The translations under genes were made by a program, and so were the position numbers. Of a stretch of 64,000 nucleotides of DNA, positions 21,830 to 44,558 are shown one piece after another. The stretch lies in assembly GCA_001800135.1 (NCBI GenBank), contig MGUU01000024.1, positions 31,844 through 95,843 of the forward strand. Direction: 5' to 3'. How positions within the stretch are numbered: position 1 is the stretch's first letter; each line of letters opens with the position of its first letter. This DNA is from Elusimicrobia bacterium RIFCSPLOWO2_02_FULL_39_32. Its GTDB lineage: Bacteria; Elusimicrobiota; Elusimicrobia; 2-02-FULL-39-32. A model generated the notes under the pieces. That model saw nothing but the letters and a program-made list of their open reading frames with translations, did not search any database and was not told where the DNA came from.

Positions 21830-24800
21830 CTAACGTTGGATCGCAATTTTAACTGTTTTTGTTTTTCCGCTTTCTTTGACTAAAGCAAAATAGATTCCGC
21901 TCTCTACTTTTTGATCAGATTCAGTTTGAGCGTTCCACTTGACCCTGCCGTCGCCATCTTCATCCTTAAGCTGTTTAACTAAATTACCTGAAAGCGTATA
22001 AATCTTAATTTCCGAATAGGCAGGAAGACCTCTAAAGATAATCCCATTATTTATATGCTCACTATTTCCGGGTTTAAATGGATTAGGATAGACCATAATA
22101 TCAGAAGTAATATCCGCTGCATATTCCATAATCGCGAATAAAGTAAGATGATCTACTTTTCCAATCACTCTTTTATTGGTTCTGTCCACGCTTGAATTTG
22201 GAACTAGAACCCAAAGGCCGGTAGATTCGTCATAATAGAAGAGGCGAAGAAGATGTTCATTTAGGTTCGATATATCACTGTCAGCATAAGGAAGATTAAT
22301 TGTTACTTCTTTTTTAAATTTTTTTGTTCCATCAGTTAAGGTAATTTCTCTCATGATTCCAGTTCCTTTTATTTTTGGATCATTTTGCAAAGGAGGAGCG
22401 TTTGTTTTTTCTTCAATCATAATTTGCGTGGAGTTGGCTAAAGCGTCTGGCGGAATTTCCACTTGCACCCCATCTGCTGTGGCAAAGATATTTTTATTCG
22501 TTATGTCAATTAAAGACCGAACCACAAATTTGTAATGAGCGGCTTGTGCGCCGCTATTGCCAGCCCCGTCTTTGGCAATTGAATGAAAGTACCAGGTGTT
22601 ATCTGCTATAGGGATAGATTCTTTGCAAGTTCCATCGCTTGAAAAATTGTCTGACTGAGAGGGAGTAGAATCAGGCAGACTGTCCACTTTCCAGTAATAG
22701 CCTGAAACGCCTGAAGAATCTTCAGGCCCTGAAACTTTAAACTCTGGTTTTGGTTCTGGGTAACTATTAGTTGAATTTGGATGTGTTTTAGAAATAATGG
22801 AACTTGGTTTTTTTGGAGCGGTTAAATCTATTTTAATTCCATTGGAATTGTCAGAATAGCTCCCATAGAGGCCAGCTCCATTTTTTGCCCGTACTCTTGC
22901 ATAGTAAGTTTCCCCTTCTTTTGCGCCTGTGACTGTTTTTGAAAAAACATTGCCTACATCCCCATCAAAAAGGTTCGATCCACCCGGACTATTTCCAACC
23001 TGCAAATAATATCCTGCGATTCCAGTTTCTAAATCTTGAGCCGTGCCAGATTCCCAGCTAAAAGGTATGCTGGTTGAATTCGTGTATGTTCCTTGATCTT
23101 CAGGCACAGATGGGGCGCCAACAACAGGTGTATTATCTTGAATAGTGAGTGAAACTGAAATAGTAACTTCGGAGCTGGAAGAGTTTGGGTCTGAGATCAC
23201 AACTGTGGTTTTGTGAGTTCCTACAGCCAGACCAAATGGTTTTACTGAAACTGTAATTTGGGTTTGATCATTTTTTGCCATATATCCAGAATTAGAAGAA
23301 AGAGTTAACCATGAATTGGAAACTTTTCCTGTCCAGTTTAAAGTGGAATTTTCTGCTCCTGTATTCGTAATGGTAAAAATTTGAGGATCGCTGCTATTAG
23401 ATGCATAAGCAGCAGTGAAACTTAGAGAATTTTTATTAAGAGAGATGGTAGGAATGGGTAAGCTAATATCTGCTGTCATGGTGGCTGAGGAGTTGCTGAT
23501 ATTGGAAATGCTAATATTGCTATTAGAACCATTATAAAATTTGCTGGAAGGATTGGAACTATTATTAAAAGTTTTATTGCCGGATGATCCAGGATATGGA
23601 TCTCCGCTATCTCCATAACTTGAGCTACTGTCTAATTGATTTAAACCATCTGCTTCCACTAAATCCACAAGTTTTCTTGATTCATTTCCATTGCCTGATT
23701 GAGATTCATCAATATGCCAGATTAAAAGCCCTGAGCTAGGCAGCGCCTGATCATATCCGGTTTTTTGCCTATTTTCAATTAAAAAATATTCTCCTGTGCC
23801 GAACATTTCTGGGCCATTAGGGTTAGATAAGAGTTGTTTGATTCCTCTGTCAGAATTTTCAGATGTTTCAACTTGGCTGAAGGAAGCTCCTGTGATAAAG
23901 TTTTTTATCTGGGTAGGAGTGACCCATCCTAAATAAGATTTGCTCCAAGCGCTATGGTGGCTAGGGCTGTCTCCGGCATAGAGTATTCCATTCCATGAAC
24001 CAGAAGCCATAATATCCCAATCTCCAATTCCAGCTGAGGAACCATTTGAACTATCCGTATCATAAAGATCAGGCAGACCTAAATCATGGGACAGTTCATG
24101 ACAAATGATCCCTATTGTGGCTTGATGATTATAGTGCAGTTCGCCAAATTGCGTATATCCGCTTGAAAATCCAGCCACTGTGGCGCCATCTACAACTGGA
24201 GGGTCAACAAAGAAAATTGACCAGCGATGCCCCCAAACAGAGGGTGTGGTTGGGGAGTAGGCTGTTTCATAACCTGCGGGTATGATGACAACATGCAATT
24301 CATCTGTAGAGAGATAACCATCATTATTGGCATCAAAGGAAGCAAAATTTACATAAGAATCAGCTGCGAGAATTGCATCTTTGGTAAGTTGTTGATTGGT
24401 CTCATCAATGTTAGAACCCGTGTTGGGATGGTTGTAAGATAAGGTGACTACTACAATTCCATTGTTAGCAGTCCCATTGCTCTCTTGCGCAGGCGCCATG
24501 GTCAGTTGGTCATAAGAAACTTCTTTAAAATATTTTTTTACGCTGTTGGTTGCGCCAAAAAATTTTTCTTCCCAATCTGCTTCTGTAGTCGTTAAATTTC
24601 GATTTTTAAAATTGACCAGTATCGCTAAAATTTTGTGCGTGCCTAAAGTTGGTTCTACCGATGCTGCTGCTTGCGCGGAAAATTGGGGAGCAAAAAAACT
24701 AGGAGCTCCACGCGTTTTAATTGCTTTAAGAGTCTCTAAGTCAGAAGATGTGATTTTTTTTATGCCTTGCGGCTGGTCTTTGCCAACGATAAGGTTGCTG

Positions 24801-25093
24801 GGAACAAGACCTTTCGTTGAATCTATTTTTGCGTATTCAAAATAAAGGCTTTCTTTATTTAAGATAACAGGATAACCCTCTTCAGTTTCCAGCCAGTTTG
24901 CCCACTCATCTCCTTTATTAAGAACTTTTATTTTAGTTCCATCCGGCTGTTCAATGGATTGCCATTGTTTAAACCCTGGGGCGGAAAATAGAGGGGGCTG
25001 AACCCAGAATAAAATAGAAAAAAGAGTCAGGATAAAGATAAAAAAATCCCGGTTCAAAATCATTTTGCTTTGGCTTTGTGACCTGGTTCTCAT
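21830..25093 (-). CDS. Secreted M6 (immune inhibitor A-like) metalloprotease with BACON/FN3-like domains and C-terminal FlgD/T9SS-CTD-like domain
   Basis: QPDG..GDEW N-domain, HELSHDLGLPDLYD, WDIMASGSW, EYFLIENRQ; C-term VYPNPF..IYTLSG..ESGIY; start may be 25093 or 25063. Confidence 0.88.
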   Translation of the reverse strand: MRTRSQSQSKMILNRDFFIFILTLFSILFWVQPPLFSAPGFKQWQSIEQPDGTKIKVLNKGDEWANWLETEEGYPVILNKESLYFEYAKIDSTKGLVPSNLIVGKDQPQGIKKITSSDLETLKAIKTRGAPSFFAPQFSAQAAASVEPTLGTHKILAILVNFKNRNLTTTEADWEEKFFGATNSVKKYFKEVSYDQLTMAPAQESNGTANNGIVVVTLSYNHPNTGSNIDETNQQLTKDAILAADSYVNFASFDANNDGYLSTDELHVVIIPAGYETAYSPTTPSVWGHRWSIFFVDPPVVDGATVAGFSSGYTQFGELHYNHQATIGIICHELSHDLGLPDLYDTDSSNGSSAGIGDWDIMASGSWNGILYAGDSPSHHSAWSKSYLGWVTPTQIKNFITGASFSQVETSENSDRGIKQLLSNPNGPEMFGTGEYFLIENRQKTGYDQALPSSGLLIWHIDESQSGNGNESRKLVDLVEADGLNQLDSSSSYGDSGDPYPGSSGNKTFNNSSNPSSKFYNGSNSNISISNISNSSATMTADISLPIPTISLNKNSLSFTAAYASNSSDPQIFTITNTGAENSTLNWTGKVSNSWLTLSSNSGYMAKNDQTQITVSVKPFGLAVGTHKTTVVISDPNSSSSEVTISVSLTIQDNTPVVGAPSVPEDQGTYTNSTSIPFSWESGTAQDLETGIAGYYLQVGNSPGGSNLFDGDVGNVFSKTVTGAKEGETYYARVRAKNGAGLYGSYSDNSNGIKIDLTAPKKPSSIISKTHPNSTNSYPEPKPEFKVSGPEDSSGVSGYYWKVDSLPDSTPSQSDNFSSDGTCKESIPIADNTWYFHSIAKDGAGNSGAQAAHYKFVVRSLIDITNKNIFATADGVQVEIPPDALANSTQIMIEEKTNAPPLQNDPKIKGTGIMREITLTDGTKKFKKEVTINLPYADSDISNLNEHLLRLFYYDESTGLWVLVPNSSVDRTNKRVIGKVDHLTLFAIMEYAADITSDIMVYPNPFKPGNSEHINNGIIFRGLPAYSEIKIYTLSGNLVKQLKDEDGDGRVKWNAQTESDQKVESGIYFALVKESGKTKTVKIAIQR

Positions 25094-25100
25094 TACCAAA

Positions 25101-25242
25101 ATTATAGCTAGGTTCCTCTAACTATTCTTCAACTTTTTGTAACAAATTTGTAACACTTTTTGTAACGCTTTTTTCCGTTACAAAATTGTTACAAAAATGT
25201 CACAAAAAGTTTAAGATCAAACGACCTGTTTTGCCGTATAAT
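25101..25242. promoter_or_regulatory. Divergent promoter pair with 3+3 inverted array of TGTAAC boxes at ~11-bp spacing
   Basis: TGTAAC at 25138, 25149, 25161; GTTACA/GTCACA at 25177, 25188, 25199; TATAAT on - strand at 25101-25106 and on + strand at 25237-25242. Confidence 0.7.
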
Positions 25243-25295: not shown

Positions 25296-28200
25296 ATGAA
25301 AAAAATGTTTTCCTTAGTTCTGGCAGCTTCTTTGCTCTTTAGCATGGCGGCCCCAAGTTTTGCCCAAGCTAAAATCTATGAAAGGCAAAGAGTTGACCAG
25401 CTGCGCGCTTTAAGCCAATTCACAAAAAATCCTCTTGCTTTAGTTGTGCAACACCTTGCGGAAAAATTGGTTCAGAATCCAAAACAGTTCCATTTATTTT
25501 ACGAACAATATATCCATGAATTAGAAACCATAAGTAAAAAAGAGAATGAGTTTAAAGTTCCATTTAAATCTCTTGCCAACAGATTTCTTTTCGCAACCCC
25601 GATTTTTAGCGTACGAGATGAAAAAATTTATGTTTTAGCCGCAATCAGGGGAAAACATTTTCAAACCAATCTGGCGCTGATATTTTCTAAAGATGGGAAC
25701 TTTGAGTCTAAGGTAGAAAAAGATTTTGAAATCAAAAAATTACTTACAGAAAATGAATTCAAAGTAAATGAAAACTGGGAGCTTAAAGATATAAGAAGAG
25801 GACTATCCTTATGGCCTAACTTCCTTGTAGAGCCTCAGAAAGAGGGATCAAAATTAAATTTTAAACCGAATCAGCTTATCGCCGATCTTCATGCAAAGAG
25901 CCCTTTTAAAAAACAAGACAGGATAAAGAAAAAAAGTTTTGAACCTTGGGTAAAAGCAGCATCCATTCTTTTAGTTTTAAACCTCACTACTCTTTTAACT
26001 CAGGGCTGCGTTTCAGTAATAACGGAACAATCTTCCATGTCTGTAGCTTCTTTTCCTTTTATGAATCTTTATTTTACGGCGATTGCGTTAATCTTATTGA
26101 ATCTATACAGTCTGATCACTAAACATCAAAATTATTTTCCAGCTTTTGTTTTTTACCCCTATTTTTCAGTAAAGAAAGTACGGTTGCCAGATTGGCTATT
26201 TCTATCCAATTTAATACCCGGCAAAGGGAACGAGCCAGAGGGCAAATCAGCCCAACTAAACGAGATTCGCGCTTCTGATGGAGAATCGGAGTTAGAACCG
26301 GCTCCCCAAACAAAAATAAATACAAAACATATCACAGATGGATTTAATAAAGTTCGGCTGATGGATGTTACAGGAGTTGAAAGGCTGGGAGTTATGGGGG
26401 ATGTGCAAGCAAATTATTTGCAGATGTTAAATGCCCTTGAAAAATCCGGATTTATTGACAGCAAAGGAGATTGGATTGCAGGTTCAGCAGTTCTTATCTT
26501 TGATGGAGACTTAATAGACGGCGGGCCAAATCCATGGGAGGTATTACAGTTTGTTTATAGTCTTCAAAACAAGGCGAGCGCTCAAGGAGGAAAAGTCATT
26601 GCAGTGATGGGCAATCATGAATATATGTTTTTAAACAGCGTTGAAGGAAGAGATCGCTACGCGCGAGAGTTGATTTGGACCCATTGGTTGAGTGATGACA
26701 ATGCCATGACCGGGCTCAATACTTTGAAAAAATTGCTTGGCAGAGAACATTTAGATTCAAACTGGGAAAAAGATAGCCATGCTGAGTTAGGGTATGCGGT
26801 TCAAAATAGAGAAGAACTTTTAAGAGAAATTCATGAACGGTATCCGGAATTGAATAACATTCTAAGATGGATGCAGCATTCCATGCCTTATGCGGTGCGA
26901 ATCAATGAAAATGTTTTGGCAGCGCATGCAGCTCCAGATTTTTATGCCAGGACATTTGAAGAGATCGCTTCTAGCGCCAGAGGAGAACTAATGACTATAC
27001 AGGATAGGGAATGGGTCAGTAATTCTCAACGCGTAAGAGAGTGGATGAAAAGGTTGGGATTTGAATATTTTGTTTATGGTCATACCTGCCAAACTCCAAT
27101 TGGTGTAGGGAAAAATGGAGGCATTCAAGGCAAAGTCAGTCAAATCATGCCTAAAATTTACAATATAAATACAACTCCTCGTCAGGCAGCAGAGGGAGGG
27201 GCTGCGGCTGTTCTAGAATTTTTATTTGACAGAAACTTAGCGCATACTGTTAAAGTGACCTATGGGGAGAACGAGTTTGGCTTAGAAGATGAAATTTTTG
27301 AACATTACTCAGTTAAAGTTTATCGCGCTTTTATGGAGGCTGCGGAAAAAATTGGGGCTAAGGGATTACTTGACTTTATTACCAAGAACATTAATCACAA
27401 AAATATGGTTAGACAATCTTCAGAAGGTCAAGTCTATAAAATTGAGGGCTTAGAGGATTATGAACTTCACCTCCCACCAGATATTAAATTTGATGATTTT
27501 AAACCTGTACAGGATCCTTTTCCAAAGAGTAATTTTGGTCAGGCGGTTGCTCAGTTGGGCAGTGTGACTATTCATAAGAGATTATTCGGAGTTCCCTATA
27601 GTGTATCTTCCCTTTCATTTGAAGAGAGTCCAACTTTAGATTCCCTATATGAAAAGCATCTTGAGATTGCCGCAGGAATGGCTCAAAGCGCTTATGACAA
27701 CTTAGCCATAGACTTAAAAAATATTCAGGATGCTGGTTATACGCTTGATTTAACAAATTCAAATAATATTTTTATTGATCCAGAACATTCAAGATTTCAA
27801 CCGCATCAACTGATTTTAGAAAAAGACGATTCATTGACTCATGCTTCAAGGTTGGCGGCTTGTCTCCTCAATCATGAGTTTGCGGCAGAAAAATATAATG
27901 GAAAGGACCCTCGCATATTTTATTGGCGAAGATTAATCCTTGAAAAATCTTTAATCGCAGCTCAAACTAGTGGACTCATATTTTCAAATGAGGATTATCA
28001 GAATCATGCATTATTTAATTTTGATTCTGAAATGGAGTTAGCTTTTGAATGGGCCGGCTTAAAAGGAGAATGGCCAAAAGTACAAAGTAGGATGATGGAA
28101 AAAGTCGAGGTTCAGAAAATTTTTTCAGATTATCCATCTACTTTACCCAAAAAGGGATTGGTTTTGTCTAGCAGACAGAGAGCAGGCTTAAGAGGTTTTG

Positions 28201-31200
28201 AAGAGATTTTTTACAGCGCTCTTTTAGTTGGTGGAATAGGAGAAATCTGGAATCATCTATTTTGGGCAGCTCCCACGATTGGTTATTTAATCGGTTCTGT
28301 TATCAGCCTGCTCCTCTTTATGAAAACACACAAAAAACCAATTTATTTAACCTCTGAAGGCGTTCTCACTCACGCACCTCCTTTAGGAATGGATGAAGAA
28401 GCAGCTCAACTAAGAGCAAAAAAAATTCTTTTTTTAATAGCAGTCACTCTACGATCCATTTATCTTTTAACTCTTTATCTATCTCCCTTTGGAAATATCA
28501 TTGACCTGATCCTTGCAACCATTGCAGCTATTGTTGCGCATGGGTTTATTTATAACAGCAAACTAGCTCCAAGATATTATTGGCCTTTAGCAATGGCTTC
28601 TCCAACTAAGCGAACCGAATTTAAATCAGAACAAGATAGAGAACGTTCAGAAATTGCTGCGCGTTCCATTAAACATGGTTCATGGAATGAACTCTCTATT
28701 AAATTATCCGTTCTTTATAAAGCCATGACACAATTAGATGAGCCAGATCGTTTAAGTTTAGAAACAGGAGATCATCTTCAAGGGCTTAGGGATCGTTTAG
28801 ACCTTTATGCTGAACGAGTCAGCCTTCAATTTCAAGATCATGAACTGCTTGAGTATAGAGAAGTTTTAGAAATTTTAATCGGTTTTTTAAAGAACGAAAT
28901 TGGACCGCGTCTTAATAATAAAGCTTTGATCAGCCTTTCAAACCATTCTACTCTTCAAGTTTATCACACCCGTTCCATTGAAATTATAGAGGATTTAATT
29001 TCTTTTATTGATGGAAATATAGAGGAACGGAAAACAACATTTGGAATTAAGGAAGTAATTGAGGAAGCGTTCGAGAATGTATTTAATGAATCATTTAGGG
29101 AAAGATATGCGAAAAGAGGGAATGAAATTACTTTGGAATTTGAAAGTTTTGAAAATAACCTTATTGAAAGTGCTGGGGACAGAAGAAAAATTCTAAATGT
29201 TTTTAGAACCTTATTTATGAACACAAGGCAGGTATGGCAGGAGAGATTACAAGCTGAAGCTAAAGACAATGTTCCGCCGCCTTTATCCTTAGAGTTGAGC
29301 GTTAAATTAAGATGGGTTGGAGATAAACCTATTCTTGAAATAATAGATAATGCAGGAGGATTTCAGAATGACGGGCTCTTGGATGTCCCAGAGAGTCAAG
29401 AACCAGATCGGCAAAAGATGTTTTTCTTAAATGTTTCAGAACGTAAAGGAGGATCTGGGTTAGGTTTAGCAGAAGTCTGGCATCTCATAAAACTTCACAG
29501 CATTAAAGATCAGCCTGCATGGATTCATGCCAGCAATCTTTCAGATCACAAAAGCAGAAAAAAAGGAGCTAAATTTACTATTTTTCTGCCAGAACTTATT
29601 GTCAAAACTGAAAGTAAATCAGAGGATACACCAGATGATCCAAACATAAAGATACTTAATAAACATAATTGGATTTTGTCTAAAGCTCGAAGGGAATTAG
29701 GACTCAAGCTTGCTGGACGCGGCGGAGGTTATTTTAGATTTTTTAAGGAGAAGGGACTGCTGCGAGAGTTAAAGAAAAAGATCATTGAAAGATTAATTGA
29801 ACACCATTGGAATTTTATTAAAACAGCTCAAAGTTTAGGAATTAACGAAATAACATTAAGAAATTTTAGAAAAGAGCTTAAAATCAAAACTTCTAGAAAA
29901 ATAAAGAATTCTGCTGCTAAAGTCAGATCAGAAAACAATCCAATTATCTTTGAATCTTCAATGATTTCAGATGAGGAATTATTGAGTAGAAAACCTTCAT
30001 TAAAACCTACAGTTAAGAAAAAGAATCAATTTATCCAAGGGCTAGATATTTTTGCAGATATGGTTTTAGCTGACATGAGAAGAAATGGCGTAACCCCTGA
30101 AGATTTTATTAAAGAGGCGGAAAAATATGCGTTAGTTCGTATGGAGATTTTATCTAGGCTTAACCGCAAGGATAGAAAATTCTTTGCGCAATATACAGAT
30201 AATAAAGAGCTGGAACTTATTTTTAAGGCTATGGAAACAGCTGAAACCTATTTGGGAAACTCTTATAAAAATTATTTTGTTGGAATTATAAAAGACTATT
30301 TTGAAAAAGGTTCTTCATTTATTTTTGAAGATTTTTGCAGATTAGACCTTTGGTTTAAACAGAATGATGAATGGTATAAAAATCTTTTTGACATTCCAAT
30401 GGATTATAGACCCAGAGAAAATGATATTGGCGCTCTATTTGAAGAACTTACAGGTTTTAGTTTGGAATCCATTCATGACAGGGATGGGGTACTTTCTATC
30501 CCCTATCTTTATTATGCCATGCAGGTAAGAAAGTCAGTTAATCCTGAACATAAACCACTAGTTGCGGTATATGGCGGAGCAGGCGCTGATATTTCAACAT
30601 TTTTATTATCCACAGATGCTTCTACAGGTTATTTTGTTACGCAAAATCAAGTAGATGCCGAACAACTTAAAAGTATGATGGAACAATGGGATTCAATAAC
30701 ATTTGATGACGATTATGCTAAAGATAAAAGGCTTTATGGTTTTGGAAATGGCGGAACTCTTGATAAAAGAAAGGGCGCAATTTATAAAGCGATAGTCCAA
30801 GAACTAAAAACAATTGGAGTTAGAAAAGAATCTGTAAGAATTGAAAATAAGGATGGTCATACAAAAATTATTTTAGACTGGGTTTACCCGGGGACCAATC
30901 AGCCTAGAACTTATTCAATTACTTATATAAAGCAGCGGTTGCAGAAGATTGGCAGCCCTGAAACAACTGACCCTTTGCTTAATTCTGCGCTTGAAAAAGG
31001 CATTGATATCTACTATCAAAAAGCTGTACAGGATACAAATAACTTATGGGGTCAATTCTTGCCTAGGGTTGCAAAAGCAATTAGAGTGGGAGGCGCTTCC
31101 ATTACAGATGATTACCAATCCATAAGCGGTATTCACAACCCTGAACCGTTTCTTAATACAGAGTCACATCATTTTGTTTCACTTAAACAGAATTCCTCTA

Positions 31201-34200
31201 AAAAAATATTCGATTGGTGGAAAAAAATAATTCCTTCAAAATCTAACTACGGTTGGGACGTAACGATCAGAATAAAAAAAGAACAACCTCAACAACAACT
31301 TATTACTGCTGTCGCAAAAGCCAAAGATAGAACAAGTGGCGTTAAAGCAGAGGACCTGCCTTTAGTGGCATTGGCGGATTTGGTGGCAACAGATATGGTC
31401 AGGGCTCATATCCCTCCAGAAAAATTTGCGGAAAAAGCAGAAGAATATACGATTGCAAGAATTTATGCGCTTTCTAAAATGGATCCGAAATGGTTAGAAG
31501 AAGCTCGAGATTTTACAATAACTAAAAATTTAAAATTAATCTATACGTTACTTCAGACTGCAACTATAAACTGGGGGGCTGAACCCCAAGTTCAGCTTGC
31601 AGGCTTGATAAAAGCTTATTTTAAAAGTAAAGATTTTAAAGCTCTGCTTCCTCAATTTAAGAAAGAATACGATCATGTCCCATCTAATTTTTCTCAGTGG
31701 TTAAATAAAAATAAGAAAATAGTTCTTTCAAAAAGATTTAAGAAAGGTGAATTATCTAAAATTGTCAGCCGCATTACAGGGTTTAACCCAGAAATTATTA
31801 AAGACCGCACCTCAGTTCTTTTACTTCCCTTTGTTCATTACGCAATGTCAGTTTGTGAGATTGTGAACCCGGATCATAAAGATTTAGTGGGACTCTATGG
31901 CGGAGCAGGCGCTGATATTTCTTCCTTCCTGCTTTCAACAGACGCAGGCACAGGGTATTTTGTTACAAACAATAGCGTGGATGTCCATAAATTACAATCC
32001 TATTTAAGGGAATGGGATTCTAAAACAGTCGAGTCTGATTATACTGACCAGGAGTACACTTACAAAAAACGTTTGAGGGGTTTTGGAGAGGGCGCTTTTT
32101 TACAAAACAGTCCTGAAAACATTTATTGGGCAATTGCAGCTGAACTTAAAAGCATGGGAGTAGAACTGAATGCCATTGAGGTTGAACTAGATCAAGGAGA
32201 TACAAAATTAAGTTTCAACTGGGCACATCCGGTTACTAATAAAAATCGTAAATATACAATTTTTTATATTAATTCTAATGTTGAAAGTATTGGCAATGGA
32301 ACAGGGGACAATAATCTTTTAAATAAAATTTTAGATTCAGGCATTGATTTTTATTACGAAAAAGCAGGGATGAACATTCATAAAAGTTGGGGGAAATTTC
32401 TTCCCCGCATTGCAGAAGCTATTAAATTAGATGGAATGGTTATTATTTGCGATTTTGACGGAGATGAAAGACCAATAGACTCAATGCCGCATTTACAAAA
32501 ATTAGGCTCAAAGTTTACTAGTTGGGGAGAATCCCTTTCCATGCGCTGGTGGCGCATGTTTATTCCTTCTCATTCCGGTTATGGATGGGAAGTTAAAATT
32601 AGAAAAAAAATAAGAAATTCCATTGCGATACAATTTGATACAACTGAATGGGATAGCGAACTATTAGAGTTTTACAAGCTGGGAGAAATAGAAAAATTGC
32701 AGAAAATTGTATTAGAAGAATCTGGTCTAAGGCGGATGGGGCAGGCCATGAAAGCGTTTGAATATTTTCTTCAAGAAGATTTAAGCACTGATTTTGGCAA
32801 AACTTTATTTTCGAGCATTCATGAAATTAACAGTAAAAAACCTTTAGCAATTTCTCAATCCCTTGTTTCAGTTTTGGAAGATGTGTTAAGGCGCGGGAAA
32901 CTGAGCGACATCAATTCTGAACAGGTGATAAAATTATTGATGTGGATTATGATGCAACAGCCGCATTTGATTAGCGAATCCATTCGGGAAACATTAGAAA
33001 TTCTGCTGGAAAGAAAAAATCTCAGTTCTCTTGAATTTAACGCGATTGAGAATCTTATTAGCTTAGCAATAGCCAAAAAACGACCGGATAGAATCTCATC
33101 CTTGTTCGTTTTTGCTGCGGTGAACATTCTCAATACTGACAATATTTTTTGGGATCGTCCTAGCAAATGGTTTAAAAAAAGTAGGAGGGACAGCCTTTTT
33201 TATTCTTCCGCATGCGATATTTTAAAAACCATTGCAAAACATAGGCCAGAGCTAATTTTTGATCCAATGATTGTTAGAGCTTTAGAAAGAGTTTTTTCAT
33301 ATGATGAGCTTGAACCTTATGTGGTTTCAGCCGCAGCCCAGGCGATTGAAGCTATTTTCCAGATCCATCCAGATTTTATTAATGCCAATACTCTTTCTGT
33401 ATTGAATAGTTTCATTCATACTGCGAAAAGAAAGAAATTAGAAAGTTATGCAACCCGCCATATTAATCATGCTATTTTAGAAATTATTAAAAAAAGAGGC
33501 AATTTATTATTTAATCCCGATTTATTGTCCACACAAGAAGAAATATTGCGCACTAATGGGCATGAAGATGAAGTCTATAAAAGCGCTGCTGAGTTTATTG
33601 ATATCATTGCTGAAAATCGCTCTTCCTCTATTCAGGTATCAACAGTTGAATCTTTAATTCAATCTTTACAGAGAAAACAGTATGTAGAGGCTCATTTTGT
33701 TGGTAAAGACGAATCAACAACTAATTATGGCATGGTATTAGGCGCTTTGATGCGGATTTTAAAATCTCGTCCTGATCTTGTGGAATTAGAAAGATTAGTT
33801 GAAGCAGTTTGTAAATTTCTAAAGAATTCCGAACGCCTCTATCCCGTTGGCTTTAGCATACTTAAACAGATCACCTTAAAAGCGCCGGCAATTTTGCAAT
33901 CAAACCACATAAAAATATTAGAAAAGCACGCTAGAAGACTTTTAGGTAAAGAAACGGCTCATTACAGTCAATTTCTTAAACCCATTGCTGATTGTTTTAA
34001 AGAAGTTTCAAGAGCCAGAGCTGATCTTATCCAATTGTCCACTGTATCGCTTTTATTCAACCTTTTAAAAATTAAGGACCTTCGTAAAGAAACTTATATG
34101 GCAGTCTTAGACACTTTTAAAAATTTAATTCAGAAAAGACCAGAATTTAATAAAGAAATATTTTTTGCATTAGAGTACTTAATGATGCAAAAAAGGCACG

Positions 34201-37200
34201 AAGCAGAAGAATACCGCTATGCCGCTCGCTTAATGAAAAAAATAATAAAAGCCGAACCAAAATTAGAAAATGGGAGTGTGTTATACCCTATTATAAAAAT
34301 ATTGCCGGAAAAAATATTAGGCCATCCCTTTCATCATTGGCGTATCTATACTGACAATTATTTTAGAGCTTGGATGGAAAAAGTTCAGTCAAATAGTGAG
34401 GCTTATTCGGTTTCTAACGCGGTTTATGAACTTTTAACGTTTTCTAACCTTCGTCTTTCCAAACAAAACATTAAAAAAGGTTTAGATTTGATTTTAATTT
34501 TGAGAAGCGTTTTATCTGTACCTCATCCAGATAACTTAATGTATGGACCCAATGTGACTGCCATCAATATCTTGCATCAAGATGAAGAGTACAGAAAAGA
34601 GAGAATGGAAACGGTTCAGATTTTGGCGCGCGTTAAACCAGAACAGATCAAAACATTCAAAGGATTTGAACAAAAAGAGAATGCTTTAGAAGCGATCAGA
34701 CAAAGCAAAGGTCCAACAACTATCTATATTCATGCGCATGGGGATGGGGAGGGATTTAGTTTGGATAGTAAAGAAGTAAGTTCTCAAAATACTGCCAATG
34801 ACCAGAAACGCCCTATTGATGAACCTTATTCTATCAGTCACCGCGAGTTAGTAGATACTCTTCTAGAAAGAGGAAATTTAAGTGAAGTTAAGATCATATT
34901 TGATTGTTGTTATCCACGCGATCTATCCAGGACTTTTATTAGTTATCTAACTGAAAGGTGTGTGTCCGATCCTGATATAAGAGCCGGATCTCCTTTTATT
35001 ATTACTGCAAATGGTGAAGGCAGATTTATTTATACTGGGATATTCGCAGAAGGCTTAAGAAGCGTGCAAAAAGCAGGCCGTTCACTATATGTGGATGATA
35101 TTTTTAAAGCTGAAGATGTTATGTTTGAATATGAAGATCCTATTATTTTGTTGCCGATTGGCAGCTCATTGTTTGAATATATGCAATCAAAAATACCAAA
35201 AATTCTTTATTCACCGCTCTTAAATATAGGCGCTATTTTTGGAAAAAAGCACAAAGATACAGCGCATTATTGGGAGTGGGTGTATCAGACACCTGTTCTA
35301 TCTATTTTTTCAAATGCGATCGCGCGTATGGTTGGGAAGAAATTAGGAGTCAAAAGAATTGAGGATCATTTAGGAGAAGCCCCTTACTCTAAAACAATCA
35401 GCCTCATTAGCTCTCTAGTTTTGATCAGTAGTTTTTTAACAGGTCACAATCTCATCATTATCGCCGCATCTGTTTTATGGTCTTTAGCCAGCGGCTATGT
35501 TTTTAGCGGAGCTCACAAAGGAAGGGAAAGCTTTAATTTGCAGGTGGTTGGTTCAATTTTAGCAGGAGTGACAATCGCTCCTGCTATTTTATTTTCTTTG
35601 ACTCTTAATTGGCTTGGCTTAGAATTACCATTCGTGGTTAGCGCAATAACTTATGTATTTCTCCTCGTGCTCGGGATGTTCTGGAATATTCATCTCCATA
35701 AGGAATATAACGAAAATATTGATGAAATATCTCAATGGCTGAAAAAAAATAGTCCTCATTCATTTAAGCGTTTCCTGCCATCTCATCTTAGTCCTGCTAT
35801 AATTTTTTCTGAACCCAGTAGATTAAAACAAGTTGAATGGGTTAAGAAATTGCATTTAGAAGAAAATAGAAATTTGATTAATCCTATGGAATTAGCTCTG
35901 GCTGATTTAATGGACTATCTAGATGCTGAGAGTTTTTTTGAAGAGTACTGGTGGTGGAAAAATTATTTAAGCGTTCCTGAAAGTTACCAATTTTCTGAAG
36001 ATGATTTGACTAGAGCGTTTAATTCATACTTAACAGAATTAGATGAAGCCGATCAATTAATTAAAATTGATCTCAATGGAACTGAACTGGACGACTTTAA
36101 ACTTTTTCTTCTTTTAAATCAGGTAGAAATTTTAAAGTCAAGAATAAAATTAAGATGGAGAGAATTTGGTTTATCTCACATCAATCGAGTTGTTTATCAA
36201 AGGACAGGAAGAGTTTTTCCTATTGACGTAATGATTTCCAATCTAAATGAATTAAACCCATATAGAGATCCGTCAGAGTCTAATTCAATTCCTGAAGAAT
36301 TAAATTCCTTATTTGCTAAGCATGAAGATTTTCCACATTTTGTGGAAAGATCCATGATTTCATATTTCGGTCCTTTATCTTCACTCCAAGAAAGATTGCA
36401 AATAGAACTTAAGCAAAGGATCCTTGCGGATCCTGCTCTTATTCATAAATTGGTTCGCTTAAGCTCTGAACAGTTTTTTATGTTATCGGATCCAATCATG
36501 GATTGGATTTTGAATATTAATAGTGAGCGGGTGGAGATCACTACGGGTCATAGAGTTCTTCAAGATGGTTTTGAAACAGAGCAGGTAACCTATGAAGGAA
36601 CACCTTATCATAAAATCAGGGAACTCCTTCCTGCTTTAAACCTTAGCTCATCCGATACTCTTTATGATTTAGGTTCTGGTTACGGCCGTTTGCCGCTTTA
36701 TACAGCAATTACCACAAAGGTAGGAAAAGTAAAAGGAATTGAAATATCTCCTGAAAGAGTCGCTGAAAGCGATCAAGTAAAAGATCAGTTGGGATTAGAG
36801 AATGTTGAATTTGTTCAAGTAAATATCAGAGATTACGATTTTAGCGATGGAACTGTATTTTATTTATTTAACCCTTTTAACGATCAAACTTTAGAAATTG
36901 TGGTTAATAAATTAAAAGAGATGGCTCAGAAAAAAAAGATACGGATTATTTCTTGGGGAAGATCTACATCTTATTTTAACCAGCAAGATTGGCTAAAACT
37001 TGTTGCCACAGTTGGCTCTGGCCCGTGGCCAATGGTGCTTTATGAATCCATGTTTCATAGCGCGAATCCAGAAGTGAATGTATTAGAATCAAAAATTTTA
37101 TCCCAAAAGATCATAAAAGGAATTTTACATTTAGAAAGCTTTTTGGATGATCCGGACCCAGACGTGCGGCGCATGGCAAACGATGTAGCTCAAAGAATTC

Positions 37201-40200
37201 AAGCTGCTTTCATGCTTAAGGAAGATACTCCTTCACCAAGTTCAATATTGGAAGATGAAGAATTGAAGACTGCGGAACAGAGCCTAAAATCACATGATGA
37301 AGAAGCGAGATGCCGAGCTGTGCTTTCACTAAAAAAACATTACCTTGCGATGATTGCAGGGGGAAAAATTCCAGATCTTACTTTGATTGAAGAAAGACTT
37401 TCTGATCCTGATTTTTCTGTTCGAAGAACAGCCGCAATCGCTTTAGGTTACCTCTATTACATGCTAAAGAAAGAAATTTCCCAATTAGAAAAATATTTAG
37501 AAGATGATGAATGGCGCCGCATCATAGGCGTGATTGCATTAGGGGAGATATTTGCTTCTAATATTAGAGAAGGAAAAGTGTTGGAGGAAGACTTTCAAAA
37601 ATATCTTCTTTGGAAGGCGAATAGCCTTCCTTATCAAGAAGAGTTAGTAACTGACTACTTAGAATCAGAAGAACCAAAAAGTTTTATTGATGCTCTTAAA
37701 AGAAAAGCGGAAAAGATTATTCGCGAAGGTTTTAACTATAACCATTCACAAAATTTATGGCTGGCTTTTCTTGGCATTCGATTTAATGGCATTCATGTGA
37801 GCTGGAAGGATTATAGTGAAAGGATGGAAGATGTGATTGAGCTGGATCAAGAGTTACCCGGCTCTTTTCGCGCGCTCTTCTCTAAAACTAAAGGGTTAAA
37901 ACCAATTGAAATCAGCCATAAAGAATCAAAACAGATTGACGCGAGTCAAGTTAATACGCAGATTTTAGATGAACATCTTCAAGAGTTATTAGAAATAAAA
38001 GAACGGATAGATAGCCTTCATTGGCTAAAGGATTTTCAGGGAGACAAAGATTTTAATTTGCGCAATCTCTATTTTATATTTAAGCGCGAGCAAGCGATTG
38101 ACCGCGGTGAAATTAAAAGAGCTGGGAGGTACAGGGTTCTTTACCCTTCTGAAAAAAAGTTGGCGGCGGAATTAAAGACCGACCTTAAACTTTTATATAA
38201 AGTTTTGTTCCAGCTCGCGCATAAAAAAATAGGGAATGAAGCCCTAAGGGATAAATGCGTAAGTCTTATGAGGGATTTAACTTTATCAGAAGCGCTATCA
38301 AACAGGGATCTGGCAAGTGAAATGATGTCGTCTAATATTGAAACCAGAATCATTGCAATTAAGAATTTTTATGAAGATTCTATCCATCACTTGCCGAACC
38401 ATGCGGTCGGTCTAAATGCAAAACAAATTAAATCTTTAGATAAAAGTATTAAAGAACTTTCAAAAGCAGTTTATGCTGAAATAAAAAAAGTTATTTACTT
38501 TGAAACAACTAGCAATGATACCTACCGTTTGATTCCGCAAGGGTTCCTAAGTTTATTTAGAGGGCGATCTGGAATTATTGATTGTTCATTTGATAGAGAG
38601 CGCGGATTCCCGCATACTCGCGCCATGCACGAAGATACCCTTTACTATTTTGTCTATAAAGGCCAAGAACTAAAAGGGTATGTTGGCTTAATGATTGGAA
38701 TAAGAGATGATGGTGAAAAAGTCTTAACTATTGATACGATTAACTCTCCTTCTCTTAACAATGAAGAGATTCTAATAAATCTTTTTAACGAACTTCACAA
38801 GGTCGCGCAAGAATTAGGGGCCATTGGAATTGCGCTGCCACAAAACATTGAAAATGCTCAATACTTTAATTTTGAAAATAAAGACGTGATTCCTAAAATG
38901 AGTTTGTATAAGAACGGTAAAAAAATTAAGTTAAAGCCAGTCCATGACGAAAGCTGGAGCGTTTTTACGGAAAAGTTTGGGGAAGACCGCTACAACAGCA
39001 TGGAAGCAGGAGATTTTATACTGTTAGATTTAGCAGACTTAGCAAACAGAGAAACCAATGCTGTAACGCATCTGAGAATAAAAGAAGAAATGAGTTCCTT
39101 TCTTTCCAATAGTTCTAAAAATAAAGAGGAGATTGAGAACTATCTCACTGAATTCAAACGGGATGGCGAACCATTATTTAAAAGATCAGATATTAAAAGA
39201 ATACTGGAGTTATCTTGGATAAAGTTGGCAAAAAGAGCGGCATTATTGGAATTTTTGATTTTGTTTCAAATTGATAATCGGTTTGTGTTTAATGGCAATC
39301 AAATAGCCAGGATCATGGATAATGCAAAGAGTCCGGAAGTTATTATTAGAACCATTAGGTTCCTTGTTCAAGAAAGTTTTTCAGACGGAGCTCATATAAG
39401 CTCAATTGTAAGTCATCCAAGGAATTTAAAGCAAATTAAGAGATTTATAAATTATTTAGTTCAAGCAGCCATTGAAGATAAATCTCATATGGCTCAAATT
39501 ATGAGTAGTTCCATGAATTTAAAAGAGGTTAAGAAATTCATTGCTCGTCTTTACAAATTAGGGTTTACAAACAGTTCTCACCTGAGCCAAATTTTAGGAA
39601 GTTCAAAAGAGCTAACAACCATTAATGACTTTGTCACTTTTCTAAATGGGTTAGGGATTCTGGATAGCGCTCAAATTTCAAGAATTATCAGGAGAGAAAG
39701 ATATCTTGCCGGTATAAAAAAAGTTGTTGATACCCTTAAAGCTGAAGGAATTCTAGATAAGTTTCAGATCAGGTCTGTTGTGCGAAGCACGATCACCCCA
39801 GCCCACATTAAGCGTTTATTAAATCAAATTGAGAGAATGGGACTAAGTGAAATTGAAAGAAGGTATGGAAAAGATAATCAAGGTCAGTTGGAATTTTATA
39901 GCGCCATCTTTCCAGAAGAACTTTCAAAAATGTCCTTATCAATTCTCTACCTAGTTTTACCAAAAGCGATTAGAAATAATAAAAGAATACTCTGGACAAA
40001 ATTATCCTGCAGTTATAATGATGCAAAAATACTGACAGAAATGAATATAAATAATAGGGGAGAAATTCATGTTGCTAATTTAATATTTCCGTTTCAAGAT
40101 TATAAAGGATATGAAGGATTCACTCGCCTCATCAGTAAAATAAGAATTCAATCAAATACGCTTTTATCTAAATTAGATCCTGCTAAATATTTGTCTAGCG

Positions 40201-43200
40201 TTCCAGATCATATTCGCAAGGAGATGCACTGGTATTATTCCCCCATTCTTTATCTGCTTCAAGACTCTATTCATGGTGAAGAAGATTTTACGGATTCAAG
40301 CATCTTAGGCGCAGGCGATAAAAATGAAGAAACTATAGTTTTAGGCAGGATGAAAGAAGTATTGGGAGAGAATGATTATCATGCTTTAATGGAGCTTCTT
40401 CGCAATCCAAAGCGAACTGCTCAAGAAAGAGAAAAGTACAAAGGACTAATTAGATTGAGCAGAGTAAGGATAGGGTTAGAGACAACTAAGAGATTAAAAG
40501 CCGGGATTATTCCAGAGGTTGAAGATTGGTGGATGAAACATTTTCCTAAAACTCCAAAACCTGTTTATCGGCTTATGATAGCCCCTCTTTTTACAGAGGG
40601 ATCTTGGTTAAATTTAGCTCCGCTTTTAGCAGGAGAACTGTTATTACAGGCGGGGCTTGGCATTGTTCCAACCGGTGTTTTAACATTTTTGCTCAATATT
40701 CTTGTGGGAGCGCGATTTATTGCTTTGCATCCTGCTGGCTCACGCGCTATTCCTATTTTTATCGTTGTCATGAATAGTATCGCACTTCTATATTTTTATC
40801 CTTTTGTTCAGTGGCATTCCAAAGAGATCGTGCTTTTTAATGCTTATTTAGGAGGTATTTTCACCCATATACTTTTGAATGCGTTTCAAATGATAATGGA
40901 TTGGGCTTCTGACGATAACTATAGGAATTATTTATCTAATGAACTGGATAAGCATAAAAGAGATATTGCAATTGGCAGGCAGAGATTTAGATCAGAGTCA
41001 GCTATAAGCAGCGGTCTAAGAGAACCAAATCAGACCCATGCGTTGACCCAGCCAGAGATGCTCTCTCAATTCCTAAGCCGTTATCCTCAAATGGAAAGAG
41101 CATACAGCAGAAGTTTTATTGAAAGGCATTGGCATGCTTTTCAATCTTTGCATTTAATTGCGGGAAAATATGCGGATTCTATATTTTTTGTTGCATTGCC
41201 GGCGTTAAGCCGCTTGGTAACCAAAAATAATATCAAGGAGGTAGGAGATCATCTAATCCTACTTGGGGAAAGAGCCGGAGAAGATTATGAAACTGTTTAC
41301 TATACTTTAGCTGCTCTAAAAGAAATTATTACATTACAAAACCTAAATTCTATATCAGAAGAGACTCTTTTTCTAAATAAATCAGCAAAAGGGAATGCCG
41401 GTCCAATTTTAAGTTTTGCGCTTTATTCGCTTAGAGAAATAATTACACCAAACAATTTTTCAACTGTTGGCGCTGAACTAATCGCCCTGCATCGTTTAGG
41501 AACTAAGAATTCTGGCGCATATTTTTGGATTTCGTTCCTTGCAGTAAGCAGGATTACAACTCCAAAAAATTTGAGATCTGTTTGCCTTGATCTTTTTCTT
41601 TTAGACAAATCTGCCGGAGAGGATGCTCGAATTCTATTTGAAACAGGATTTTTATCAATTAGAGATATGATTACCGCGGAAAATTTAATGAAAATCGGAC
41701 TTGATCTAATCATATTATTAAGAGCCGCAAAACAATATAAAAGATTTCTATTTAATAATATCATCCCAGCGCTAAAGGTTGAATATGGAGAAAGATGGAA
41801 CAAATTAAACTGGGAAGATATTAAGAATCGTATTCTAAAGACATTAGAGGATATTCACAATGGCGTACTAAATACAGCTATTTTTAAAAAGAATACGCAT
41901 GATGTCATTCAAAGAGAGGATGTTTTAACTTATCAGAGGAATAAACCAATTGATATTACAGATCCTATGGTACGACAGCTTTTAAAAAACAAAATAGAAG
42001 ATTCAGCGTATAGAACTGCTGTTCTCAACCAGTTTTATCTCTCTGAAGCATGTGAATATTTTGATTCTCTTGTTAAAGAAGACATGTGGAATAGTTTAGG
42101 AGCTTGGAAATTTTTAAAAGAGATTTATCGAAGATTTGGTTCTCTTAAAGGGAAAACAGTCATAGATTTGTATGCAGGCCCAGGGGTTGGAGTCGAGCAA
42201 TTAATTCGTTTAGGCAGTGTTAATGCAATAGGCATTGAAACAGATCCAAGATTTGTAGAATTTGCCAAGCAATTTGGAATTCCTATTATACATGGCAGCT
42301 TATTAAAAGAAGAACTTAAAACAGCTGTTGAAGAATTGATTGGGAATAGGAAAGTCTCTTTAACTTTTTCTTATGGTCTTTTAAATAATATATCGAATAG
42401 GAAAAAAAGATTAAAGATTTTGCGCTCTATTTCTTCTCTTACTCCAGTAGGCTCTTTTAGCATTCATGGCACAAAGCATCGCATCCCAACTACTAATGAG
42501 GAGTTTAAAAGCGCAGGCTTTAGGATCATTGAAATCAATAGAGAACGGACATTTGTAGTTTTGTTTAAAGAAAATGAACCAGAAGATTGGGATGCTATTG
42601 GCTTTAATCCTTTATTTGATGATACTGAGAAACCAGAAGATGACAAAGAAGATAGAAACAGCGATAAAACTGATGAATCCTCTGTTAATGCTATTCTGAG
42701 CGCAACCATTTCAGCTCTACCTATTTTTCTTGAGCCTATAACCTCTTCTTCTTTTTATTTTGGGCAGAACTCATGGGATAGATTGACTTTAGAAACCCAG
42801 AAGTCATTGAGAAGGTCATTTGGTACAGAGCCATCATCTAATGTTTCTATTTCTCAATGGCTTGGCAGCAGATTGGCGATAGGAGCAAGAATCAATAAAA
42901 ATCCGCTCGCCATCCACTTGCTTAGTGAAAAGATAAATTTTGCGCGTTCACTATTAGAATGGAAACAATTAGATATAAACGAAATAATAGGAAACGCATT
43001 TACATTATTTAGAAAACCCAACTGGGCATTCGTTAAAACTCCTAACATGATATTTCAGATGGGAGGAACTCTATTTAGGGAAAATAGTTCTGCTTCAAAT
43101 GTTCAAAGCAGCATTGAGATGCTGGCTAGGAATTTGAATGAAAAGGCTCCAGAGGTTATCAATCAAAAAGATTCAATAAAAATTACAGTAAGCTATCATG

Positions 43201-43963: not shown

Positions 43964-44278
43964 ATGAAACGAAAAAAGATGAGTCCTGTGCACCCAGGTG
44001 AAATATTAATGGAAGAATTCCTGAAGCCGCTTGAGATCAGCCAATACCGGCTGGCCAAAGATATCAACGTCCCACCGCGCCGAATCAATGAAATTGTCCA
44101 TGGAGCAAGAGCTATTTCGGCAAATACTGCGTTACGACTTAGCTGTTATTTCGGTAATTCAGCTCAATTCTGGCTGAATTTACAAACTCATTTTGAATTA
44201 GAAATAGAGGAAGAACGCTTGTCCCCTCGCCTCGAACAAGAAGTGCACAGATTTTCTTTACCAATACATGCAACCTAG
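43964..44278 (+). CDS. higA: HigA HTH antitoxin
   Basis: PVHPGEILMEEFL, RRINEIVHG, TALRLS.YFG.SAQFWLNLQ. Confidence 0.95.
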   Translation: MKRKKMSPVHPGEILMEEFLKPLEISQYRLAKDINVPPRRINEIVHGARAISANTALRLSCYFGNSAQFWLNLQTHFELEIEEERLSPRLEQEVHRFSLPIHAT

Positions 44279-44372
44279 ATAAAATAGAAAATAGTTTTAT
44301 TTTGATCTAATCGAAATGACTAACCCCGGGGTTTAGCAATAGACATTGACATAACCAAAGCTGCAAGTTTAA

Positions 44373-44401
44373 TTGCAAGAATCCCACTAAAAATCTATAA
44401 T
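44373..44401 (+). promoter_or_regulatory. Sigma70-type promoter for tRNA-Leu/tig
   Basis: TTGCAA-N17-TATAAT. Confidence 0.55.
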
Positions 44402-44477
44402 AATAAATTCCCTTTTTTACAGTTAAAAAGGGAATTTTTACTTATAAAAGGGGAGAAGATTAGAAGCCTCTGTTAAA

Positions 44478-44558
44478 GCCGGGATGGCGGAATGGCAGAC
44501 GCGCTAGCCTTAGGAGCTAGTAGGGAAACCTGTGGAGGTTCGAATCCTCTTCCCGGCA
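44478..44558 (+). tRNA. trnL: tRNA-Leu(TAG)
   Basis: GCCGGGA/TCCCGGC acceptor stem, CTAGC-CT TAG GA-GCTAG anticodon arm, long variable arm, GGTTCGAATCC; CCA not encoded. Confidence 0.95.

Follow-up and report, generated by a model that had tools for sequence, protein, structure and literature searches.

This study focused on the control region between a secreted M6-family metalloprotease gene and a divergently oriented giant gene in Elusimicrobia bacterium RIFCSPLOWO2_02_FULL_39_32 (genome G000), within a window of 64,000 nt, which is the whole stretch of contig MGUU01000024.1 that was analysed. The region consists of two back-to-back promoter modules, each a putative activator array of the OmpR/PhoB family and probably that of the regulator RR2. 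As judged from sequence, the module is likely to place about a seventh of the genome under simultaneous activation by one two-component regulator. The type of mechanism is itself a textbook one; the module is a promoter class of this lineage, and it would serve giant and secreted proteins in the manner of known OmpR/PhoB activation sites.

Architecture of the divergent control region

A first-pass annotation, made from the sequence alone, had described six phased boxes, namely TGTAAC at 25138, 25149 and 25161 (spacing 11 and 12), then GTTACA at 25177 and 25188 and GTCACA at 25199 (spacing 11 and 11), flanked by ATTATA at 25101 and TATAAT at 25237, which stand 31 nt outside the first box and 32 nt outside the last, respectively. 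All of these were present. The reported lack of a good -35 also stood, as neither -10 was part of a sigma-70 promoter in a consensus scan, and the two window modules have AAGAAT or AGATCA where a -35 would normally be. The inventory of six was, however, incomplete, as the GTTKAAG and GTT boxes closest to each -10 (boxes 3 and 4) had been overlooked. The region and its flanking genes comprise the following parts:

21830..25093, minus strand: secreted M6-family metalloprotease gene, 1,089 codons (PF05547, TIGR03296)
25101..25106, minus strand: -10 TATAAT of the leftward module, 48 nt after the start of box 1; reads ATTATA on the plus strand
25116..25122, minus strand: leftward box 4, GTTAGAG, 9 nt before the -10; register taken from other copies
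25127..25133, minus strand: leftward box 3, GTTGAAG, about -39 to -33
25138..25143, minus strand: leftward box 2, GTTACA; TGTAAC on the plus strand
25149..25154, minus strand: leftward box 1, GTTACA; TGTAAC on the plus strand
25161..25166, minus strand: leftward extra upstream box 0, GTTACA, at 12-nt spacing; absent at the orthologous locus of G005
25177..25182, plus strand: rightward extra upstream box 0, GTTACA
25188..25193, plus strand: rightward box 1, GTTACA
25199..25204, plus strand: rightward box 2, GTCACA
25209..25215, plus strand: rightward box 3, GTTTAAG, about -40 to -34
25220..25226, plus strand: rightward box-4 position, degenerate (AACGACC), 10 nt before the -10
25237..25242, plus strand: -10 TATAAT of the rightward module, 49 nt after the start of box 1
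25296..43571, plus strand: ORF for the 6,091-aa giant protein, with an N-terminal leader common to 35 ORFs of G000 (leader genes)

The imperfect palindrome described earlier is genuine in its symmetry but not in its extent, which is about 91 bp (25126-25216) rather than about 77 bp (25133-25209), and the enlarged symmetry takes in two more boxes per side, GTTGAAG/GTTTAAG and the degenerate GTT. In the outer arms (25126-25157 versus 25185-25216, centre 25171), 27 of 32 positions pair, and in the inner arms (25158-25167 versus 25176-25185, centre 25171.5) all 10 do, with an offset of one base between the two sets.

This symmetry had been read as a single bidirectional element, a view that did not hold. 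Each half is a complete one-way module, and 43 of the 45 copies detected in G000 lie outside this pair; a search of that genome with a strict pattern revealed no further back-to-back pair within 1 kb. The gap between divergent halves is 34 bp in G000 and in a genome of the same genus (G001), 21 bp in a genome of another genus (G005), and 9 bp at an unrelated locus of family f10, and the difference between 34 bp here and 21 bp in G005 means that the halves have no fixed phase. The mirror is thus two divergent copies of a one-way promoter module, and not one unit.

The M6 protease has an intact HELSHDLGLPD motif and a C-terminal T9SS-type-A-like tail. Its ATG (25093) lies 7 nt past the -10, the same distance as at the corresponding G001 locus (L042, C19:60068-60220), which makes a leaderless mRNA probable; by the ORF finder the start is placed at TTG 25099 instead. 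The 6,091-aa protein gave metallophosphoesterase, methyltransferase and HEAT matches. L042 agrees with G000 in all six hexamer boxes and in both -10s, and both changes in box 3 fall at the G/T-variable position, while the spacers adjoining the -10s have changed at 4 of 9 and 3 of 10 bases. In G005, an M6 orthologue (58% identity) again diverges from a leader gene across two modules, without the extra boxes. The M6/giant pairing is therefore conserved and the phasing is not. Recurrence of the pairing in G001 and G005 favours the earlier suggestion that protease and giant gene would be under shared control. No module was seen in the fetched flanks of the remaining 15 M6-like loci that were scanned, most of which are distant paralogues.

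Module copies, target genes and distribution

The matches of a genome scan for TGTAAC-N4-7-TGTAAC, a looser form of the proposed repeat, share a 43-bp context, and this led to the module, KTTACA-N5-KTTACA-N4-GTTKAAG-N4-GTT(N4)-N9/10-TANNNT. The gene-strand consensus is GTTACA-N5-KTTACA-N4-GTTKAAG-AAAA-GTT, with boxes starting at 0, 11, 21 and 32 nt (spacing 11-10-11), TANNNT at 48 or 49 nt, and no -35. With the -10 taken as -12 to -7, the four core boxes cover about -61 to -22. The spacer columns of the 45-copy alignment carry almost no information, box 4 excepted.

A first matrix built from 21 seeds gave 59 matches above 12 bits in G000, which merged to 45 copies after removal of overlaps, and none in shuffles. 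The refined matrix, derived like the first from the very copies of G000 that it scores, gave 49 non-redundant matches of at least 10 bits, three of them variant copies without a -10, versus 0 in two locally shuffled genomes, which argues that the array is not due to chance. An ORF follows 42 of the copies, and 39 of these are oriented towards it; in 34 of 45 copies the best -10 takes one of two offsets, 13 or 14 nt after GTT. TANNNT stands at 48 or 49 nt in 121 of 142 modules pooled from the genome and fetched loci, a set that includes near-identical G000/G001 pairs and 30 loci found by a pattern already containing the -10. In the same pool, none of the ATGs opening long ORFs lies 3-5 nt past the -10 and 40 lie at 6-13 nt, a distribution that would fit transcription start sites about 7 nt beyond the -10. 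Half-modules seldom stand alone in G000, where intergenic DNA away from modules contained only 4 distal pairs and 6 proximal matches.

Among the 1,816 ORFs returned by a simple ORF caller, a module lies directly upstream of 23 of the 37 that encode at least 2,000 aa, versus 16 of the 1,779 others. The leader family accounts for 26 direct targets among its 35 ORFs, leaving nine without a direct module, and all direct targets together sum to 361 kb, or 14% of G000. In five of the 14 giants that lack a module, a contig end lies no more than about 130 nt from the start; small module-bearing genes precede two, and upstream of two there are c-di-GMP-I riboswitch matches. Among the other targets are a LacI regulator, the M6 protease, NHL-repeat and UPF0164 proteins, receiver proteins, and genes without a Pfam match.

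The strict pattern was found in 10 of 11 genomes of the family of G000 (f1) and in 0 of 29 genomes of other families; with a relaxed pattern the figures were 11 of 11 in f1 and 5 of 5 in f10, genomes that are kin and so not independent. No match to the relaxed pattern was found in 294 further genomes of the phylum, a result that holds for that pattern only, because it is blind to the variant form of a third family, f3 (0 of 3). In a GTDB-wide search, 51 of 53 matches were titled Elusimicrobia; one of the remaining two has an Elusimicrobia-type leader gene downstream and the other lacks a -10.

Module and leader-gene counts track each other across 12 related f1 genomes (rho 0.98). Leader genes are abundant in f1, f10 and f3, with 0-3 weak matches elsewhere, and one genome (G006) has RR2 and two modules and no leader gene. 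Template-seeded EM recovered the four-box geometry upstream of leader genes at 28 of 30 f10 loci (the best 30 of 68 matches) and 26 of 30 f3 loci (the best 30 of 75), versus 0-3 in shuffles. In each of the three families boxes 3-4 are unlike boxes 1-2, the proximal pair being CTTAAG-N5-CTTAAT in f3 and GTTKAAG/GTT in f1. In the converse, motif-first search, a leader gene lay downstream of 27 of the 50 genome matches and 19 of the 37 metagenome matches, and on the opposite side of 1 of 50 and 0 of 37. Related giant genes in f10 and f3 are thus preceded by variants that keep the 11-10-11 spacing.

The candidate regulator and rival readings

Only three OmpR-type DNA-binding domains were detected in G000, in a census that covered OmpR-type and sigma-70 families: RR1 (C8:46043), RR2 (C17:37507) and RR3 (C17:17560-18255). 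RR2 is a 232-aa protein whose best NCBIfam matches are PhoB models, below cut-off. Its orthologues form an f1, f10 and f3 clade (96/93) in a tree of 56 proteins sampled from about 155 regulator matches; RR3 likewise forms a clade of these three families, so that co-occurrence does not separate the two. Boxes lie 9-13 nt before the RR2 start in 7 of the 9 f1 orthologues with an intact 5' end (G000, G001, G003, G006, G007, G010 and G011), with only the distal pair upstream of the gene in G007 and G011. G008 and G002 have no boxes at that position, the G002 module preceding the adjacent receiver gene, and the G004 copy is cut off. Of five f10 genomes, four have a module no more than about 700 nt from RR2. 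No boxes were seen beside RR2 at four f3 loci, in G008 or in G020, nor at the 8 RR3 loci viewed, and no RR2 orthologue was found in two module-bearing genomes, G005 (80% complete) and G009 (73% complete). In f3 and f10 the RR2 gene follows a Cache-HAMP kinase gene, the best G000 match to which (C3:13579) lies between two module-bearing giant genes. Some member of the OmpR family is very probably the cognate activator, and RR2 by itself, which the position of boxes next to its gene favours, is a reasonably probable candidate for that role. PDB similarity was discarded as evidence on the cognate regulator, since RR2 has GlnR as its best match but RR1 matches GlnR more strongly, and the likeness of RR2 is not specific.

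An OmpR/PhoB-type operator taking the place of the -35, as suggested at the outset, draws support from the tandem direct half-sites of 10-11 bp period, their single orientation and fixed distance to the -10, and the co-occurring OmpR-family regulator. RR2 would be phosphorylated, probably through the Cache-HAMP kinase (its operon partner in f3 and f10), and two RR2 dimers would bind head-to-tail at about -61 to -22, contacting sigma region 4 in place of a -35. Transcription would start about 7 nt past the -10, often giving leaderless or short-leader mRNAs, and the M6 protease and the 6,091-aa protein would be turned on together with about 40 other genes, mostly giant or secreted, while the boxes overlapping the start of RR2 itself would provide feedback control.

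The TGTWAH-N5-TGTWAH or (G/T)TTACA repeats of the WalR box, the RpaB HLR1 element and the core sites of B. subtilis PhoP resemble boxes 1-2, and the likeness includes four-repeat arrays upstream of a -10; a literature search for the B. subtilis four-repeat description found nothing, and no response regulator of G000 reaches the YycF or RpaB cut-offs. PhoB is described as binding 11-nt direct-repeat units head-to-tail (PMC4415409), and at pstS it occupies -41 to -25 (PMC10570014), compared with about -40 to -23 for the proximal pair of the module. The pmra-box is likewise said to replace the -35, and its XTTAAY repeats, 5 nt apart (PMC10570014), are close to the f3 proximal pair, but it consists of one pair, four bases further downstream than the PhoB site and without a distal TTACA pair, and the f1 proximal pair has diverged from it. 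The Actinobacterial GlnR complex (PDB 8HIH, 8HML), as described in PMC10235972, has four protomers head-to-tail around a non-optimal -35 on unlike half-sites (a-site gTnAc); its a and b sites alternate, however, in two 22-bp boxes 6 nt apart, whereas the module is arranged A-A-B-B'.

Several other readings were weighed. An AND gate, in which RR2 would take the distal KTTACA pair and RR3 the proximal TTAAG-type pair, would account for the sequence difference between the pairs in all three families and for the distal pair standing alone upstream of RR2 in G007 and G011. The distal pair and the RR2 recognition helix are also near constant while the proximal pair and the RR3 helix both change, although one change on a tree is not co-evolution. 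Aligned by eye, RR3 of f3 and f10 has His where RR2 has Arg at the position of PhoB Arg201, a residue reported to read guanine and replaced by Asn in PmrA, which binds CTTAAT (PMC3973317); the PmrA counterpart is N196 by that source, and an assignment to N188 was wrong. Half-modules hardly ever occur alone, however, 8 RR3 loci have no boxes, and GlnR is described as binding two unlike half-sites by itself (PMC10235972), so the gate is considered unlikely. It would form part of a broader, unlikely scheme, a lifestyle master switch in which RR2 (TTACA pair) and RR3 (TTAAG pair) are both required at some 40 promoters, for a giant-protein arsenal and secreted enzymes in three families; c-di-GMP riboswitches would then gate some of the largest genes a second time. 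That the module is instead a Pho box read by the PhoB orthologue RR1, making the giants phosphate-starvation genes, is very improbable. RR1, which heads phoR-porin-pstSCAB-phoU in G000, was present in all module-bearing genomes among the 41 searched, the half-sites are similar (the G000 pst promoter reads GTCATA-GTTACA-TTTACC at 11-bp spacing, and some modules contain GTCACA), and a module-bearing 4,084-aa giant gene follows directly on the phoU end of the pho operon (C8:38376-46717). But pst promoters carry TGTCAY repeats at strict 11-bp spacing in f1 and f3 as in the module-free families f5 and f13, so that a true pho box, with its own PhoB, exists apart in this lineage, and the module, with its KTTACA and TTAAG-type half-sites, 11-10-11 spacing, and giant and secreted targets, is not one. 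The G000 pst promoter is also absent from the 49 module matches, and seven families with RR1 orthologues yielded no module and no abundance of leader genes. A protein-family search found pstS in 27 of 41 genomes (9 of 41 with a single-protein query), and a repeat scan found pho-type boxes within 1.5 kb at only about half of 30 pstS loci.

Binding of the boxes by a non-OmpR factor, either an unrecognised winged-helix protein or the LacI-family regulator C20:65457, or a repressing array, is very unlikely. The LacI gene carries a module, all 4 strand matches in G000 of the perfect palindrome TGAAACGTTTCA, which we take to be LacI-like, adjoin modules, and the regulator census was limited to two families; yet the core is a direct repeat of 10-11 bp period and not a dyad, the boxes cluster at RR2, and in the absence of a -35 there is little basal activity to repress. 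The LacI regulator is a possible second, carbon-linked input. If GTTKAAG were the -35 of an alternative sigma factor or of a long-spacer (MerR-type) promoter, its resemblance as TTGAAG/TTTAAG to TTGACA, the presence of a group-2 sigma, and the higher frequency of TATACT at modules (31 of 121, compared with 6 of 92 TTGAC-type promoters) would find an explanation. This is highly improbable, as the upstream repeats would be left unexplained, the 20-21 nt spacer has no conserved dyad between -35 and -10, and the group-2 sigma, on which the comparison was centred in a genome that also encodes two ECF sigmas, has an RpoD-like region 4.2, occurs also in module-free families and showed no co-variation with the module; it may nonetheless be the holoenzyme used at modules. 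Most improbable is a passive origin, in which the copies came along with giant-gene duplication or belong to a small mobile repeat. Most targets are indeed paralogous at the N-terminus, but conservation is confined to the boxes and their spacing, the spacer sequences being variable; the module also stands before unrelated genes (M6, LacI, receiver, NHL-repeat, UPF0164) and is conserved over three families.

For the module, no description was found in the literature on Elusimicrobia giant genes, promoters and regulons, in a search that covered mainly open-access papers. Elusimicrobiota are described as among the bacteria richest in huge proteins (PMC11573180), and a 2026 preprint reports no recognisable promoter before an Omnitrophota giant gene (bioRxiv 10.64898/2026.06.04.730025). 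A keyword search did not find the word 'promoter' in two giant-gene papers, and bioRxiv 10.1101/2023.11.21.568195 was also among the sources. A conserved promoter before most giant genes is evidence that these are real, co-regulated units, and in fragmented assemblies the module also shows where genes truly start and which of them belong to the regulon. Naming a candidate regulator and sensor kinase reduces the question to 60-bp DNAs and a 232-aa protein, without culturing.

Further observations at module loci

In the window, the giant gene is followed by an Xre-type HTH gene and a tRNA (43964-44558), then by trigger factor-clpP-clpX-lon. The G001 orthologue of the giant gene at L042 has an open frame of only about 968 codons, which may reflect a shorter gene, a frameshift or an assembly error. 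One contig titled Nitrospinota (L065) carries a full module and an Elusimicrobia-type leader gene, and is probably mis-binned.

Four of six c-di-GMP-I riboswitch matches, one of them below cut-off, lie upstream of giant leader genes (C16:383082-383176, C16:154201-154304, C25:158722-158839 and C10:50483-50617; also loci L089 and L038); one is between module and gene, one upstream of the module, and two at giants without a forward module. In several genomes, proteins of 230-305 aa with the motif F..GLNNG(F/Y)T are encoded between module and giant gene (C16:331263-332129 and C16:284599-285438; loci L015, L064, L086 and L013), and two that were compared with Pfam and NCBIfam had no match. Two small gene pairs, presumably toxin-antitoxin-like, and a 112-aa leader fragment occupy C16:230955-232419, between two module-less giant genes, and a module-led operon at C16:200131-205052 encodes unannotated, secreted-looking proteins, with one weak WxL-interacting match.

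Variant arrays (GTTTTGAAAAAGTT, no -10) at C10:50710 and C10:109173 lie just upstream of an opposite-strand TTGAC-type promoter. A subtype seen at C8:38376, C17:7148 and about ten other modules has TGAAAC(G/T)TT(T/A)CA just upstream of a GTCACA first box, and tandem modules about 100 bp apart precede one gene each at C16:332117 and 332230, and at C6:19026 and 19124.
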